Of a DNA stretch of 64,000 nt, positions 537 through 64,000 are shown piece after piece. The notes under the pieces are model-generated. The model saw only the letters and a list, made by a program, of their open reading frames with translations, was not told the DNA's origin and searched no databases. Source of the stretch: a virus; the IMG/VR virus record IMGVR_UViG_3300033149_002633, positions 15,255 to 79,254 of that record; one strand, 5' to 3'. A program made the position numbers and the translations under genes. How positions within the stretch are numbered: the stretch's first letter is position 1; every line of letters starts with the position of its first letter.

Positions 537-1214
537 ATGACACCATACAACATATTTAAAGAATTTACGCTTCCAACTCGTAGTCAGTTGGTGTTGTTAA
601 AAGAAAAGTCATTTTTGACTGTAGAAGACGTATCGAAAATATTTGGATATAGTAAAGAGACTATACGGAAGAGAATAAGAGAAGGAGATATACCAGCTAA
701 GCGGGAAGTTACAAAATATTTGATACCATCTAAAGCTGTATATGATAAAACTTCAACGTTGCTTACTGCTCTGAAAAATATGGAGATAGAAACAACAATA
801 GTTCCAGAGATATACAATAGAGTATTCTATAAAGCAACAATACAACATCCAATAGATTTTACAATAAAGAATGAAGAAATTGTAATAATATTTGACGTAA
901 ATATAAAGAAAGAGACTACTCACTTTACGACTTTTGCATTAACTATTCTTTATGTAAATGGAGAAAAACCAAGTATATCTGGTGATAATATCATAGCAAC
1001 TATACATGTATTCTTTGACATTGATAATTCTGTTACTGGATTAGAGATAGAGAAAATGTGGGACAAAGAGAATAGATTTGATTATTCTCATACTCCAAAA
1101 GTCATAAGTAGAAAGTGGAGAACAGTCATATATTGGATAATCAATACATTTGTCTTGAAATTCTATAATACGGAGGATGAAAAATTTGTTAGAGAAAGAG
1201 AGATTAATAGTTAG
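537..1214 (+). CDS. excisionase/MerR-type helix-turn-helix DNA-binding protein
   Basis: FLTVEDVSKIFGYSKETIRKRIREGDIPAKR matches the HTH_17/Xis pattern. Confidence 0.75.
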   Translation: MTPYNIFKEFTLPTRSQLVLLKEKSFLTVEDVSKIFGYSKETIRKRIREGDIPAKREVTKYLIPSKAVYDKTSTLLTALKNMEIETTIVPEIYNRVFYKATIQHPIDFTIKNEEIVIIFDVNIKKETTHFTTFALTILYVNGEKPSISGDNIIATIHVFFDIDNSVTGLEIEKMWDKENRFDYSHTPKVISRKWRTVIYWIINTFVLKFYNTEDEKFVREREINS

Positions 1215-57903: not shown

Positions 57904-59400
57904 ATGATAAAAAAAGTCATAGAAGTATTGTTAGTTGATGATGAAAAAGAATTACTTAACGCTACTAAAGAGTATTTAGAAAAACATATCAATGATGATT
58001 ATGAATTCCACATTACTGCTGTTCTTAAAGCTCAAGAAGCTCTGGAACTTATCAAGACACAAAGATTCGAATGTATAGTATCTGATTATAAAATGGAAGA
58101 GATGGATGGTCTAAAATTCCTCGAAGAAGTCAGAAAAATTGATAAATCTATTCCTTTCATTATCTTTACTGGCAGAGGCAGAGAAGAAGTAGTTATTAAA
58201 GCTCTCAACCTTGGAGCAACCTATTATCTTAAAAAAGGTTCAGACTATCATTCTCAATTCATCGAACTCAGTAATTTTATCAAACAAAGTGTAGAAAAAG
58301 TTCGTTTGATTAAAGAACTTAATGTTACTAAGACTTGTCTAATCCAGAAAATTAATTTTATTAAATCCCGTCATTTCATGGATATAAATATGCTCGAAAG
58401 TCTTGTTGTTATTATCAAGTCTGATGAAACTATTGAAACTGTTAATAGTAATTTTTGTGAGGTTTTAGGTTACACTAAAAATGAGCTTATAGGTAAAAAT
58501 TGGTTTAATACTGTCATTCCTCGTATTGATAAAGAGCGTATGCGTTTCATTTTCAACAAAATCTTGAGTGGTGACCGAACTTATCTCTGGGGTAGGAGCA
58601 CTCTCAAAACCAAAGAAGGTAAAGACCTTACCATTCGTTGGCACAGTTCTCTTACTAAAACTGATGATGATATTCTTAGGGTTGTCTCTATTGGCAACAT
58701 CATCACTCCCGAAGAAGAACTCAGTCTTAAGGAACAACGTGACGAACTCGAATTCTTTGCTCGTACTGTCGCCCATGATTTGAACAATAAATTATCCATT
58801 CTCTCTCTTTACAACAACCTCCAGTCTAACGGTTCTCCTATGTCTCCTTATTCCCGTAAAATCGACACTACTATCAAGGAGATTAGCGAGTTTCTTGACA
58901 ATCTCCTTTTTCTGGCTAAACGGGGTGAAAAACTTGGTCCCACCACCAAGGTTGATTTAAACGAGCTTGTCAATAAGATTATTCAAGACTATCAACCTTT
59001 TTCTGTTGATATGCGTTTTATTGTCCATCCTCTTCCTATTCTTATTGGTCATCCTACCAAACTCGAGCAACTTTTCAGCAACTTGATTTTGAACGTTATC
59101 AACCACGCCCAAGCTTCCAAGCTCACTATCTGGTCTAAACGTGACACCGAACGTGGCTGGATGAAGATTTTCCTTCGTGATGATGGTAAGGGTATTGCTC
59201 CTTTCCACCAGCAACGTATTCGTGCTATCTGGAACCGTCATAAAATCAGTGATACTTCTCATGGTCTTGGTCTTCTTATTGTCAAGAAGATTGTTGAGGC
59301 TCATGGTGGTCGTATCAGTTTTTCCAGTGGTCATGTCAATGGTACCACTTTCCTTCTCGAATTCCCTCTTTCCCGTCTTTCCCGTTCTTCTCCAGTCTAA
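57904..59400 (+). CDS. hybrid sensor histidine kinase REC-PAS-HisKA-HATPase
   Basis: REC LLVDDE/VSDYKM/FTG/LKK; PAS VNSNFCEVLGYTKNELIGKNW; H-box VAHDLNN; N-box NLILN; DDGKGI; GLGL. Confidence 0.95.
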   Translation: MIKKVIEVLLVDDEKELLNATKEYLEKHINDDYEFHITAVLKAQEALELIKTQRFECIVSDYKMEEMDGLKFLEEVRKIDKSIPFIIFTGRGREEVVIKALNLGATYYLKKGSDYHSQFIELSNFIKQSVEKVRLIKELNVTKTCLIQKINFIKSRHFMDINMLESLVVIIKSDETIETVNSNFCEVLGYTKNELIGKNWFNTVIPRIDKERMRFIFNKILSGDRTYLWGRSTLKTKEGKDLTIRWHSSLTKTDDDILRVVSIGNIITPEEELSLKEQRDELEFFARTVAHDLNNKLSILSLYNNLQSNGSPMSPYSRKIDTTIKEISEFLDNLLFLAKRGEKLGPTTKVDLNELVNKIIQDYQPFSVDMRFIVHPLPILIGHPTKLEQLFSNLILNVINHAQASKLTIWSKRDTERGWMKIFLRDDGKGIAPFHQQRIRAIWNRHKISDTSHGLGLLIVKKIVEAHGGRISFSSGHVNGTTFLLEFPLSRLSRSSPV

Positions 59401-59533
59401 AAAAACATTTTTCTTCTTTATTTTTACATCTTTTTGTTTTTCTTCCTCCCCATTCTACTTCTTCTACTTCTCTTCCGCAGTATGGACAGTATTTAACCCT
59501 TTCATACTCTACGAACGCTCTTTCTATTCCCAT
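59336..59533 (-). CDS. small zinc-ribbon protein
   Basis: CPYCG...RC..C; overlaps the 3' end of the kinase convergently. Confidence 0.55.
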   Translation of the reverse strand: MGIERAFVEYERVKYCPYCGREVEEVEWGGRKTKRCKNKEEKCFFRLEKNGKDGKEGIREGKWYH

Positions 59534-59654
59534 TTCTTTTCTTTCTTTTTTTCTTCTTTCTCCTTTTTCTTTTTTTCCTTTTTTTCCTTTTTTTCCTTTT
59601 TCTCCCTTTTCCTTCTCTTATATACAGCAACACATCTCCTCTTGTCGTACTCAT
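59502..59654 (-). CDS. 50-aa protamine-like peptide (not in ORF track)
   Basis: MSTTRGDVLLYIREGKGRKRKKRKKRKKRKRRKKKKRKKRNGNRKSVRRV*; ATGA overlap with the upstream peptide gene. Confidence 0.55.
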   Translation of the reverse strand: MSTTRGDVLLYIREGKGRKRKKRKKRKKRKRRKKKKRKKRNGNRKSVRRV

Positions 59655-59815
59655 CTTTTTCTCCTCTTCTTCCTCCTTTTTGTTTTTGTCCTTGTTTTTG
59701 TCTTTGTCCCGTAATAAGCTCTTTCTATTGCTCTTCTCTTAGCCTCGCTAACGTTTTTCCCATATTTCCTTTTTCCGAACCACCAATTGCCTTTTTTATC
59801 TCTTCTCCATGGCAT
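59651..59815 (-). CDS. 54-aa highly basic peptide (not in ORF track)
   Basis: MPWRRDKKGNWWFGKRKYGKNVSEAKRRAIERAYYGTKTKTRTKTKRRKKRRKR*. Confidence 0.7.
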   Translation of the reverse strand: MPWRRDKKGNWWFGKRKYGKNVSEAKRRAIERAYYGTKTKTRTKTKRRKKRRKR

Positions 59816-59830
59816 CTTCTTTCATCTCAT

Positions 59831-60073
59831 CTATCTTCTCTTCTTTTTCCCTTTCCCTTTCCCTTTCCCTTTCCCTTTCCCTTTTCTTTTCTTCCCCTTC
59901 GCCGCCATCTTCTGGAATTTCTTTTTTCCATACTTTTTCCTTCCTATCGCCGCCGCTACCGCAGCTGGGTCTCTTACTCCTTTCTTTTTCAGTTGTCTCT
60001 CTAACCTTCTGAACCTCTCTCCCGTTCCTAACTTCGGTTTCTTTTTCTTTCCTTTTTTCTTCTTTTGAACCAT
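59831..60073 (-). CDS. 80-aa highly basic protein
   Basis: LGTGERF..L...L.KKGVRDPAAVAAAIGRKKYGKKKFQKMAAKG core with Lys/Gly tails; GGTGA RBS. Confidence 0.8.
   Translation of the reverse strand: MVQKKKKGKKKKPKLGTGERFRRLERQLKKKGVRDPAAVAAAIGRKKYGKKKFQKMAAKGKKRKGKGKGKGKGKGKKKRR
59846..59884 (-). repeat. (GGGAAA)n hexamer repeat encoding a Gly-Lys tail
   Basis: About six TTTCCC units on the + strand. Confidence 0.85.
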
Positions 60074-60443: not shown

Positions 60444-61436
60444 TCAGTTTTCAGAAAGCCACTTTTCGCCTAACTTTATCACTCTTTTAGCATCAGAAAC
60501 GAGTTTCTCATTCTTTGAGGTTTCTATGACTTTTGAAGCTTTTTTCATAAAATAGATTATAAAGCCTTCTAGCTCTGTATTCTGAGCTAGAAGAATGAGT
60601 TTTCTTCCACCCATTGAACAATTATCGAATTCTTTTTCCTCTACAAGCCACTCAAAGAATTCAACAGTGTAATTCGCAAAATTTGTTTGTTTTTGGAATA
60701 GCTCCAATTCAGCAAAATAAGCTTCCAGAACTGCTAAAAGTCTGTTCTTTCCGCTTGTTATATCTTTGTCATTCAGATAAATCTTCTTATGATTTATATA
60801 AGCATATTGTAATAATTTCAGTAGCTCAACGAGATTTCTCGAAAGACGAGATATCTCTGAAACAAAAATAACCTTGAATTCTTTTAACAATAGTTTCACG
60901 ACTTGAGCACTGTAAAAACCCGAAAAATCTTCGAGTTTCAACACATAAGGCTTGTCGAACCCTAATCTTTTCGCTTTTCTCTTTAAACTCTCTTCCATAG
61001 CGAAATATCGCACTTCTGCAGATTTTGAAGTACTTTGACGCTCATACACACAACAATTATATTCTTTTGCGTTTTTAAGAGCTGTTTTCACTAATTCAGC
61101 GTTCTTTTTCTTCTTGTATTCTATTTCTTCGTCTTCTTGCTCTTCTTGTTCTTTTTCAATCATCTCATATATTGACATAGAATTATTGTTTTCACTTCTC
61201 AAAGCTAAAAACTGCGAAAAAGTAAATTCAAGATTTCTTTTTCTAGCTTTTTCAACACTATCAAGAGAGCGAAGAAGATAATTTCTTACACTTCTAACAT
61301 CAGAATTCATTAGTTTTACAGCTGTTGAGCCATAAATCCTAATTTCGAACTCTTTTTCAAAATCCTCATAAACTTCAACCCTACGGTCTGAAACTATGTA
61401 TTTCAAACCATATTCATCATCAAAATACTCTTTCAT
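60444..61436 (-). CDS. serine recombinase (resolvase/invertase catalytic domain) with N- and C-terminal extensions
   Basis: VYERQST (catalytic Ser), EDFSG, IFVSEISRLSRN, helix E LLAVLEAYFAELE. Confidence 0.85.
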   Translation of the reverse strand: MKEYFDDEYGLKYIVSDRRVEVYEDFEKEFEIRIYGSTAVKLMNSDVRSVRNYLLRSLDSVEKARKRNLEFTFSQFLALRSENNNSMSIYEMIEKEQEEQEDEEIEYKKKKNAELVKTALKNAKEYNCCVYERQSTSKSAEVRYFAMEESLKRKAKRLGFDKPYVLKLEDFSGFYSAQVVKLLLKEFKVIFVSEISRLSRNLVELLKLLQYAYINHKKIYLNDKDITSGKNRLLAVLEAYFAELELFQKQTNFANYTVEFFEWLVEEKEFDNCSMGGRKLILLAQNTELEGFIIYFMKKASKVIETSKNEKLVSDAKRVIKLGEKWLSEN

Positions 61437-61503
61437 TTCTACACCACGTTTTTACTTGCTGTATATACAGTATTTGCAAAGTTATTTAAAGGTTTCGAGA
61501 ATT

Positions 61504-61552
61504 CGGAAATTCGGAACAATCGAACCCATGGTAGAAGAAATACGAATTTCCG
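61504..61552. repeat. dyad site A
   Basis: CGGAAATTCGG-N11-CCATGG-N10-ACGAATTTCCG; minus-strand TATA at 61483-61490. Confidence 0.85.
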
Positions 61553-61695
61553 CACTTTTTCGACTTGTTTATATAGAATGAATGAAAACATCAATTAGAG
61601 AGTTTGAAACTCAAAAATCTGTTTTTCTTAATATTCTCTTATAGAGAATATCTTTAACTCAAAAATATAAGATGTAAGATGTGAGAGGGAAAAAA

Positions 61696-62064
61696 TTAAA
61701 CAGTCAAATAAATAGATTGATTATTTTTATAGTCATAAATAGCTTTCTGTTCCCACATTTTACCTAACTCAATAGCTAGGTCTTTTTGAATTATAGAAAC
61801 AGAAACATCGAAATAAGCTATATCGTTATCTATCCACACTCCTATATACTTATCATCTTCAACAAGTTCAGTATATTCTCTTATGAGTGATTGAAAAACT
61901 GGAAAAGTCAATAGTTTTAATGGGATTTGTGTTTCAAAGTTTGGAGTAGAAACGATATAATCAAGATTAGAAACCTTCTCAAGTTTCTTATTCACTGTAA
62001 AACCATTGTTATTATACAATGCTTTGAACAACTGTTCAATCTTCATTTTGATATCACCTAACAA
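61696..62064 (-). CDS. hypothetical protein, distant resemblance to phage SAM-lyase-like proteins
   Basis: GVWID...YFDVS...AIELGKMWEQKAIYD; likely start at ATG 62046. Confidence 0.6.
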   Translation of the reverse strand: MLGDIKMKIEQLFKALYNNNGFTVNKKLEKVSNLDYIVSTPNFETQIPLKLLTFPVFQSLIREYTELVEDDKYIGVWIDNDIAYFDVSVSIIQKDLAIELGKMWEQKAIYDYKNNQSIYLTV

Positions 62065-62371
62065 GTTTCCTCTTAAAAACTCTCAACATATTATTTTGTA
62101 TATCAAAGAAATACAAGTATTCACAATAGATATCGCTGTTTTCATCATAGATTTTACGGTATATAAGAGCTGAAGTCTCAAAACTAAAGAAAACATCTAC
62201 TTCAGTATGAGGCACATTCTCGTAATATGTTTCTTCAACTATACAATCACCAGCCAAAATTTTATATTCGTCTTTCCTAAAATACAAAGTTCCTATTCCA
62301 TATTGAAGAGTTATATTAAGTGTAGGACTTTCGAGTTTTATCTCATTTGCTTGTTTCCATACATCTGTCAT
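62054..62371 (-). CDS. hypothetical protein
   Basis: GGTGA RBS; first gene after the site-B promoter. Confidence 0.7.
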   Translation of the reverse strand: MTDVWKQANEIKLESPTLNITLQYGIGTLYFRKDEYKILAGDCIVEETYYENVPHTEVDVFFSFETSALIYRKIYDENSDIYCEYLYFFDIQNNMLRVFKRKLVR

Positions 62372-62428
62372 TTTGTTATCACCTACACTATAAACAGTAT
62401 ATGAATATTTAAAGGGATTGAAAAAATA

Positions 62429-62476
62429 CGGAAATTCGGAATAATCAAATCATGACACCAGAAAACCGAAAAACCG
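62429..62476. repeat. dyad site B
   Basis: CGGAAATTCGG-N10-TCATGA-N10-CCGAAAAACCG; minus-strand TATA at 62406-62413. Confidence 0.9.
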
Positions 62477-62517
62477 AAATTTGAAAAAAAAGAATATTAA
62501 GATGTAGATGATAGATA

Positions 62518-62730
62518 CTAATTTCTCTCTATTTCCCACGAATTTTGAATATATTCATTTTCAGTATCAATGAATTCGTTATTATAAGGCACAAGTGTTT
62601 TTCCGTTCAAATCTTTTTCTTCTAAAACAAGCTTTTCAGCTTGTTCCTTTGAATACGCTTCAATTTCATAGTAATAATCTCTCGCTTCTATTCTTGTTAC
62701 AATTACTTTAAACTTCTTTAGCTTTGCCAT
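62518..62730 (-). CDS. small DpnD/PcfM-like protein
   Basis: KKFKVIVTR...EIEAYSKEQAEKLV; start taken at MAKLK after a GGAGTGA RBS. Confidence 0.6.
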   Translation of the reverse strand: MAKLKKFKVIVTRIEARDYYYEIEAYSKEQAEKLVLEEKDLNGKTLVPYNNEFIDTENEYIQNSWEIERN

Positions 62731-62735
62731 TTCAA

Positions 62736-63182
62736 TCACTCCCAAGTATATGAAATACACAAGGAGCCAATATCAAGCCAAACCTTACGCATTAGTTTAT
62801 ACTCATCAAGAGCGTCTTTGTCTTCACTATCTGGTCTCTTTAACATAAAACTATTTAAGAAGTTATCTACTTCTTCTTCATTTGCCACAATCATTATGAA
62901 ATCTCGTTGTTCAAATTTATGTCCAACTATTTTATTCATTTGTTCTTCACTCAAAAGGTCAAAGCTTTCAGAAATGTTGAATATTTTCAGCAGATGCTTA
63001 TGTCTATCGTAATATTCTTTTCTGCTAATACTTCCACAATTAAAAGCATATGAGAAAAGAACAAAAAGTAATATAGGACTATCACCTTCGTGACAAAAAT
63101 CTGGAAGTTTTCTGTAAAAATTCTTATATTCATTTGTCTTTTGTATCTGAAACTTGATTTCTTTTACTAATTTTTCATTCAT
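62736..63182 (-). CDS. hypothetical protein
   Basis: GGTGG RBS. Confidence 0.7.
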   Translation of the reverse strand: MNEKLVKEIKFQIQKTNEYKNFYRKLPDFCHEGDSPILLFVLFSYAFNCGSISRKEYYDRHKHLLKIFNISESFDLLSEEQMNKIVGHKFEQRDFIMIVANEEEVDNFLNSFMLKRPDSEDKDALDEYKLMRKVWLDIGSLCISYTWE

Positions 63183-63220
63183 TTTGAACCACCTAAAGAT
63201 GAATAAAAAAGGAAGAGTAA

Positions 63221-63502
63221 TTATTTACTCCTCTTTTTTATCTTTATCTGCTTGATTTGACGATAGAGATTTACAGATAGCTTTAACTGTTCTTTCTTAT
63301 CTCCATTGACATTTTCGTCAATGATTTGATTTCCACGACTTGTCGCAATCATTTCATTACCTTTATCCGTTAGATACAGATAATCATCTAAATTCTCAAT
63401 CTCTATTGTCAATTTGTTCTTACTCTTATCAAGTGAGTACTTGACATTTGAGCCAACGAAACCAGTTATTGCTTTTGATACTGTTTTTGTTGTTGTTGCC
63501 AT
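63221..63502 (-). CDS. small hypothetical protein
   Basis: NVKYS..KLTIEI...IATSRGN...LSVNLYR; start MATTT after a GGTGA RBS. Confidence 0.7.
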   Translation of the reverse strand: MATTTKTVSKAITGFVGSNVKYSLDKSKNKLTIEIENLDDYLYLTDKGNEMIATSRGNQIIDENVNGDKKEQLKLSVNLYRQIKQIKIKKRSK

Positions 63503-63560
63503 TTTTGGTATCACCATTATACACACTATTCACACACTATTTAAAGATATTGAAAAATTT

Positions 63561-63608
63561 CGGAAATTCGGTTAAGCTCAATCATGACTTGAAACAACCG
63601 AAAAACCG
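63561..63608. repeat. dyad site C
   Basis: CGGAAATTCGG-N10-TCATGA-N10-CCGAAAAACCG; minus-strand TATA at 63538-63545. Confidence 0.9.
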
Positions 63609-63670
63609 AATTTTAGGAAAAAGAAAAAATTGAAACAACCGAAAAACCGAATTTTAGGAAAAAGAAAAAA
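63589..63670. repeat. perfect 41-bp tandem duplication of the right arm of site C
   Basis: TTGAAACAACCGAAAAACCGAATTTTAGGAAAAAGAAAAAA at 63589-63629 and 63630-63670. Confidence 0.95.
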
Positions 63671-63678
63671 TAGAAAAA

Positions 63679-63879
63679 TTATAACTCGTTTCGTTCTCCA
63701 GTCCTTCTATTCATTTCAGCTACTATTATTCCCCGTGTTTGCTCAAAACAGTGAGGACAAAATGATAGACCACCAGCATATTTATGAAAAGTAATCAATA
63801 TTTCGTCTTCTGAAAACTCTTTGTTGCAATGCTCACATTTGTATATATCACACCACTCTTCTTCGCTCATCTTAATCAT
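63679..63879 (-). CDS. zinc-ribbon protein
   Basis: CEHC...CPHC. Confidence 0.7.
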   Translation of the reverse strand: MIKMSEEEWCDIYKCEHCNKEFSEDEILITFHKYAGGLSFCPHCFEQTRGIIVAEMNRRTGERNEL

Positions 63880-63999
63880 CTAGTACTCTTCAATATCTAT
63901 AAGATGTTCAGTAGTTATATATTCCACTTTACTAAATGTTATTCTATGTATTCTGCATTGGTGCTTATAAAATAATTCTCTATCTTTGATGTTATGTAC
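63880..63999 (-). CDS. 3' end of a gene truncated by the window edge
   Basis: Open frame ...VHNIKDRELFYKHQCRIHRITFSKVEYNITTEHLIDIEEY*. Confidence 0.55.
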   Translation of the reverse strand, partial: VHNIKDRELFYKHQCRIHRITFSKVEYITTEHLIDIEEY

Positions 64000-64000
64000 C

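Follow-up and report, generated by a model that had tools for sequence, protein, structure and literature searches.

What is the role of the long symmetric elements that stand between small operons, beside a gene of the serine recombinase family, at the end of the DNA stretch analyzed here? The stretch (called the window throughout) comprises 64,000 nucleotides of an IMG/VR virus record (IMGVR_UViG_3300033149_002633, 79,254 bp, hereafter G000; window = G000:15255-79254). Unmarked positions are those of the window, while site D, site E and the cassette D promoter are given in record numbering. The ends of G000 carry a 114-bp terminal repeat placed within an open reading frame (ORF), which indicates a circular or circularly permuted genome opened at an arbitrary point; hence, the array of elements that reaches the window end resumes at record position 1. 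A sequence-only reading of the window had proposed an integron- or shufflon-like system, in which a serine recombinase excises, reorders or acquires cassettes at these elements, with upstream activator sites as the alternative. Our analysis leans toward the latter, and we hold it somewhat better than an even chance that the dyads are bound by a protein and coupled to promoters, as operators or upstream activating sites (UAS) of one regulon.

The virus has a G+C content of about 30%, and its promoters combine a B recognition element (BRE) and a TATA box as (T)TCGAAAGG-TTTAAATA, with GGTGAT ribosome-binding sites downstream. These BRE/TATA promoters, together with tailed-virus genes, confirm its earlier designation as an archaeal virus. 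No close relatives of G000 were found by tblastn among GenBank phage records. The locus consists of five consecutive minus-strand operons, each with one to four small ORFan genes; a non-coding, repeat-rich region of 0.85 kb (record 2.4-3.25 kb) lies at one end of the series and the recombinase gene at the other. The full element of G000 is about 52 bp long and reads TTCGG-N3-TTCGG, N10, TCATGA, N10, CCGAA-N3-CCGAA, each arm being composed of two TTCGG pentamers 8 bp apart. Three symmetric intergenic copies had been recognized from the window. Sites B (62429-62476) and C (63561-63608) fit the proposed pattern exactly, with 0 expected in 100 dinucleotide shuffles, and site A (61504-61552) is a variant with an exact left arm, one mismatch in the right arm against the inverted left arm and a CCATGG core. 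Scanning the remainder of the genome, as had been suggested, revealed two more sites past the record junction, extending the array to four full dyads (A-D) and one half-site (E), which lie 0.9-1.7 kb apart and all within one 5-kb block:

61502-61554, no strand assigned: site A, the most symmetric copy, with arms CGGAAATTCGG and ACGAATTTCCG and core CCATGG.
62427-62478, no strand assigned: site B, a full dyad with a TCATGA core.
63559-63610, no strand assigned: site C, a full dyad with a TCATGA core.
Record 1414-1461: site D, a full dyad.
Record 2382-2394: site E, the promoter-side arm only, without CATG and without the far arm, adjoining the 0.85-kb non-coding origin-like region.

No further arm pairs were found elsewhere in the 79-kb genome. 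Alignments of the sites (A5, A6) agree with the earlier description of conserved arms and central hexamer around variable spacers; the TATA box is conserved as well, and the spacers are mutually unrelated. Additionally, an exact 41-bp tandem duplication (63589-63670) repeats the far arm of site C, creating a second far arm 41 bp further out.

A related array is present in the virus IMGVR_UViG_3300028883_000041 (G001, 85,587 bp), which carries the recombinase family member P0020. Among viral contigs, searches with the recombinase, P0004, P0006, P0013, P0020 and A4, as well as the motif scan, recovered G001 only. No relatives beyond it were recovered with the portal alignment A3 against metagenome and viral contigs, or with P0011 and A4 against genome contigs. 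G001 ends in a 136-bp terminal repeat with one mismatch (L011 1-136, L005 14911-15046), though its IMG/VR class is linear, and it is therefore probably a complete genome. The two genomes are collinear, and the products of their replication and virion genes are 45-74% identical. The G001 array adjoins the homologous recombinase gene and has other arms (TCGCT-N5-TCGCT, N9-10, CATG, N7, AGCGAC). Its minimal dyad occurs in exactly five copies, on one strand, at 80.4-84.6 kb (shuffle mean of 0.01), and a sixth promoter (1764-1788) has three TCGCT repeats without the core. The arm pair of either virus does not occur in the other, the arm sequence having been replaced, while the central CATG is kept in 9/9 full dyads of both. 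The recombinase gene of G001 is inverted with respect to G000, the genes on both sides keeping their orientation, and it is bracketed by two dyads, one upstream (80427-80456) and one at its 3' end (81624-81664). The latter is complete and has no TATA box beside it. A tRNA gene (L005 7497-7570, minus strand; Rfam, 56 bits) is located about 2.5 kb from the G001 recombinase gene.

Concerning the promoters, the minus-strand TATA box that had been noticed near each copy is the sequence TTTAAATA downstream of A, B and C, although the gap between site and box has to be re-read, as each arm is counted here as two pentamers (13 nt):

61483-61490, minus strand: TATA box of the recombinase promoter (TTTAAATA on this strand), with a BRE-like CGAAACC upstream, 11 nt from the promoter-side arm of site A.
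62406-62413, minus strand: TATA box of cassette B.
63538-63545, minus strand: TATA box of cassette C.
Record 1393: promoter of cassette D.

Counted in this way, 13 nt separate the promoter-side arm from the TATA box at sites B and C, and 11 nt at site A. This 13-nt gap is exact in 8/9 promoters of the two viruses (4/5 in G000, where site A is the deviating case, and 4/4 in G001), and the bases inside it are not conserved. Each virus also has a promoter-side half-site that lacks the core and the far arm but keeps the 13-nt distance (G000 2382-2394, G001 1764-1788). All sites share one orientation relative to their promoters. Oligo-T tracts occur between the last stop codon and the far arm of the next site, and the sites lie between a predicted terminator and the next promoter. 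A role of the sites as RNA elements or terminator hairpins was rejected, as the region has no Rfam hit, the spacers show no co-variation and the T-tracts precede the sites. A weaker BRE at site-bearing promoters was considered as a sign of activator dependence and dropped, the comparison with other promoters of the genome not being clear-cut. Two further features of these promoter regions were recorded. The first one is a box on the other side of site A:

61568-61575, plus strand: TATA-like box TTTATATA of the opposite strand, separated by exactly 13 nt from the outer end of the far arm of site A, the single such case.

Together with a short hairpin and a T-run downstream, the box occupies 61568-61630, and it may serve as the divergent promoter of a short RNA, either antisense or non-coding. 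The other is a second conserved module downstream of the TATA box, which consists of TAGTGTR-type repeats around the expected start in G000 and of TGTAATACA directly after the TATA box in G001:

Window 62372-62405 and 63503-63537, L004 1356-1392 and 2329-2362: promoters of G000 with the downstream module.
G001 promoters s2-s4: promoters of G001 with the downstream module.

According to the regulon reading, one virus-specific regulator would control the five consecutive small-gene operons, the recombinase gene included. The two inverted pentamer pairs around TCATGA would suit an oligomer, e.g., a dimer of dimers, sitting roughly 45-95 bp upstream of the transcription start and directly upstream of BRE/TATA, where the bound factor could recruit or block TBP/TFB. 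Archaeal activator sites are found upstream at such positions, while repressors usually overlap the TATA box or the start. It is the 13-nt phasing that points to the activator-site alternative, since its exact conservation across about 50% protein divergence argues that the bound factor works together with the basal promoter. The half-sites fit a transcription factor and cannot serve strand exchange, and thus favor a promoter function. The confinement of the array to one block in each virus suggests a regulon, as do the gene-content differences, which fall inside the cassettes and not at the cores. The regulator that reads the arms is probably encoded by the virus itself, given that the two viruses share their basal promoter elements but not the arm sequence. 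Two candidates can be named, the neighboring protein of the recombinase family and a viral protein with an HTH_17 domain. There are also observations that this reading has to face. The promoterless full dyad of G001 (81624-81664) is not explained by a pure promoter element, and the CATG, invariant in 9/9 dyads despite the changed arms, is needed by a crossover site and not obviously by a transcription factor. For the protein that binds the dyads there are candidates only, and with two related genomes (n = 2) the co-occurrence of promoter and site is not independent evidence.

The genes that such a regulon would comprise were compared between the two viruses. Those of the window, apart from the recombinase gene, are the following:

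61696-62371, minus strand: cassette B, with B1 at 62054-62371 (105 amino acids, aa) and B2 at 61696-62046 (116 aa).
62518-63502, minus strand: cassette C, with C1 at 63221-63502, C2 at 62736-63182 and C3 at 62518-62730, all ORFans.
63679-64000, minus strand: 3' part of cassette D, with a Zn-ribbon gene at 63679-63879 and the end of a 269-aa gene that crosses the record junction.

The description of the DNA between sites as self-contained units stands, with two genes in B, three genes in C and oligo-T before the next site. No Pfam family was found for the B and C genes, and PHROG matches of the cassette proteins were only weak and of unknown function. The model of B2 is confident (mean predicted local distance difference test score, pLDDT, of 87), yet no structural match with Z of at least 5 was obtained, and no regulator was found among the cassette proteins tested, B2 alone having been folded. 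Genes for host takeover or anti-defence are usually found where these ORFans stand, beside a likely origin. Homologous genes follow one another in an identical order in the two viruses (219/201-aa, 269-aa, 122/132-aa, recombinase), and a homologue of B2 adjoins the recombinase gene in G001. The content differs by extra genes between the promoter and the conserved gene (B1, D1-D2) and by an extra 3' gene (D4). The whole unit C has no counterpart in G001, where a weak C1 homologue (E-value = 0.003) heads another cassette. No gene gain or loss between the two genomes puts a breakpoint at the CATG core. The 269-aa ORF (window 63880-64000 and L004 1-803) corresponds to three ORFs in G001 (140, 110 and 113 aa; 82426-83518), evidently through fusion or split of one gene.

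The gene that follows the site-A promoter had been read as a serine recombinase, and the homology is upheld by Pfam, PHROG and an AlphaFold2 model:

60444-61436, minus strand: serine-recombinase-family gene, 330 aa, with the catalytic domain at aa 128-248 and a four-helix C-terminal domain at aa 255-329.

Specifically, PF00239 is matched with 27.4 bits against a cut-off of 23.3 (E-value = 4e-6), with no Pfam match outside aa 130-246, and PHROG gives phrog_95 (integrase/invertase; E-value = 6e-9). In the profile search against PDB, the TP901-1 integrase (3e-6) is followed by Sin and TnpX. The AlphaFold2 model, for which 19 family members were used, is confident over residues 100-330, while the N-terminal region of about 100 aa has a pLDDT below 50 and is variable across the family. 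VIA-align pairs the model with the Sin catalytic domain (Z of 11.9, root-mean-square deviation of 2.5 over 108 residues), a large serine integrase (Z of 11.4) and IS1535 TnpA (Z of 9.9). By fold and sequence family, the protein belongs to the serine recombinase superfamily. The RQS, D-x-SG, RLSRN and E-helix motifs are kept in the 19 family representatives. In the Tn3 resolvase, the strongest effects come from R8, S10, D36, R68 and R71, and D67 has been reported as non-essential (PMC2794168). The equivalents of those five residues (R133, S135, D170, R197 and R200), aligned to the TP901-1 motifs, are conserved (alignments A1, A2) and the recombinase therefore looks catalytically competent; in the position of D67, the protein has Ser. 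With 19 representatives, none above 41% identity, in an exhaustive HMMER search of 1.84 billion proteins, the family is tiny and very divergent. One member comes from a Heimdallarchaeaceae metagenome-assembled genome, and on this sole basis the virus may be Asgard-linked. No DNA-binding domain was recognized in the N- or C-terminal parts by Pfam, Foldseek, VIA-align or ESM Atlas. The C-terminal four-helix domain matches generic helical bundles only, and both flanking domains are acidic (isoelectric points of 5.1 and 5.5). Regarding the other candidate binder, a 225-aa protein encoded at window 537-1214 (plus strand) contains an HTH_17 (excisionase/MerR-type) domain (6e-8) and has a G001 counterpart of 43% identity; one of the promoter motif sets of G000 may be under its control.

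Among the explanations that involve recombination, the dyads could be dual-purpose sites of the adjacent recombinase, which would bind them, control the promoters (that of its own gene among them) and carry out strand exchange at the AT in the middle of CATG. Multimers of the genome might be resolved in this way, or the segment with the recombinase gene inverted. In both G000 and G001 this gene lies right next to the array, its key catalytic residues are conserved, and the CATG core, centred on a palindromic AT, does not vary even though each virus has arms of its own. The inversion of the gene between G000 and G001, with its neighbors keeping their orientation, and the two dyads flanking it in G001, one of them promoterless, are in line with this view, and the differences among the arms could find their match in the N-terminal region, which varies across the family. 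However, the acidic flanking domains, in which neither a helix-turn-helix nor another DNA-binding domain was detected, argue against it, and the 52-bp paired-pentamer geometry is unlike the crossover sites of small serine recombinases, which measure 26-32 bp. Neither the half-sites nor the strict promoter phasing is explained by recombination, and with four to five sites in direct order the intervening operons would be deleted. We regard the dual-purpose role as the main rival of the regulon reading, though an unlikely one. A simple inversion between the two G001 dyads was tried as the source of the opposite gene orientation and rejected, its product reconstructed on paper differing from the G000 layout. 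A bolder proposal, that the dyads are working sites of a previously undescribed serine-recombinase family of archaeal viruses without a recognizable DNA-binding domain, appears more doubtful still. The protein would act at CATG with the arms read by the N-terminal region or a partner, its own gene segment, bracketed by two dyads in G001 and inverted between the viruses, would be invertible, and rearrangement would be coupled to promoter control of the accessory operons.

The integron- or shufflon-like reading, according to which the recombinase would excise, reorder or acquire core-to-core units of promoter and genes, draws on the modular composition of the units (site, promoter, one to four ORFan genes, terminator), on cassette C being without a counterpart unit in G001 and on the weak C1 homologue standing first in another G001 cassette. 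Nevertheless, it did not withstand comparison with the relative. Homologous gene order is identical in both viruses, the insertions fall between promoter and conserved gene or at the 3' end and never at cores, and the breakpoints that had been expected at CATG were not found. Each unit has its own BRE/TATA promoter, the sites are uniformly oriented, and their spacers are unrelated, with no trace of recent exchange. Integrons have the tyrosine recombinase IntI, whereas the block encodes a single recombinase, which is of the serine type, and the arrangement of promoterless attC cassettes behind one common attI promoter is absent. Repeats in both orientations dividing alternative segments of one gene, the trait of shufflons, are also absent, as the sites are intergenic and the genes are unrelated complete ORFs. 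We thus consider such a system very improbable. There is equally little chance that the sites serve genome maintenance, as origin iterons, partition sites or packaging signals that merely lie near promoters. The array does abut a 0.4-0.85-kb non-coding repeat-rich region in both viruses, but the sites, exactly phased and numbering one per promoter, extend over 4-5 kb of coding DNA, one G001 half-site lies about 2.5 kb beyond the non-coding region, and no initiator or ParB-like gene was identified nearby.

The promoter-coupled sites of the regulon reading can be compared with several known systems. Archaeal UAS such as those of Ptr2 of Methanocaldococcus and GvpE of haloarchaea are shorter sites of cellular regulators. 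Like them, the dyads present repeated recognition motifs immediately upstream of BRE/TATA at a fixed distance; we know of no link of archaeal UAS to a recombinase or to a conserved central palindrome. As in the Tn3/gamma-delta res, Sin and beta-recombinase sites, a serine-recombinase gene stands beside dyads overlapping the region of its own promoter, with a palindromic AT centre, and the G000 protein could likewise be both regulator and recombinase. A res site is a single compact locus (about 120 bp, comprising three subsites of 25-34 bp), whereas in G000 the 52-bp dyads occur singly, at different promoters and at intervals of about 1 kb, and the protein has no recognizable C-terminal helix-turn-helix. 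No extra arm copies were found within about 150 bp of site A, and a compact subsite cluster is therefore absent. A precedent for the regulon reading is the halovirus HF2, whose class I intergenic repeats contain promoters and, presumably, sites for viral regulators; class I/II repeats occur in other haloferacalesviruses too (PMC8707807). The dyads resemble them as virus-specific repeats of tens of bp, present only before operons of an archaeal myovirus, with conserved blocks and variable positions (PMC8707807). Both are also coupled to the TATA box, keep their position among relatives (for the dyads, in G001) and are proposed to be bound by virus-encoded regulators. Unlike the dyads, the HF2 repeats contain the promoter itself, are no long dyads with a palindromic core, span about 30 kb and are not clustered by a recombinase; the arm-swap with an invariant CATG has no counterpart in the HF2 paper (PMC8707807). 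Finally, the ends recognized by the IS607-family serine transposase TnpA have short directly repeated motifs bound by several dimers (PMC6188088). The G000 protein shares with this family extra sequence N-terminal to the catalytic domain and a fold resembling IS1535 TnpA, and the dyad arms, too, consist of short direct repeats. It differs in that no MerR-like N-terminal domain was detected, the sites are promoter dyads and not transposon ends, and there is no tnpB and no sign of transposition.

Apart from the array, some features of the two genomes were recorded. Between a histidine kinase gene and the recombinase gene (window 59336-60073, minus strand) lies a run of small ORFs of 50-80 aa that are extremely Lys/Arg-rich and belong to no Pfam family; one of them contains (KG)n and runs of K. 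Restriction-type palindromes are strongly avoided in both viruses. GATC and GGCC are absent from the whole of G000 and G001, CCGG, CGCG and GCGC have only 0-2 copies, and CTAG has 42 (G000) and 5 (G001) copies against more than 200 expected. CATG was considered as a rare word of this type and rejected, since its depletion is mild (0.65-0.76 of expectation, 187 and 301 copies), and rarity does not explain its presence in the sites. Additionally, the 14-mer TAAGATGTAAGATG occurs in exact copies on the plus strand only of both viruses:

Window 61668-61681; G000 record 2553 and 15237; G001 6375, 10472, 83784 and 83791; plus strand: exact copies of TAAGATGTAAGATG.
G001 1903, 81759 and 84669: variants of TAAGATGTAAGATG.

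It is kept across about 50% protein divergence, and its copies are found where minus-strand cassettes end (3'), within the non-coding regions that resemble an origin, and immediately ahead of a conserved plus-strand gene.

To our knowledge, transcription control in uncultivated archaeal tailed viruses is almost unknown. The locus presented here is a cleanly defined regulon candidate, with five promoters, a composite 52-bp site and an exact 13-nt phasing. The natural swap of specificity between the two viruses retains the architecture and the CATG centre, rendering the site testable in vitro. The neighboring protein defines a small and very divergent family of serine recombinases with intact catalytic residues and no known DNA-binding domain and, if it is true that it acts on the dyads, they would represent a new site architecture for serine recombinases.

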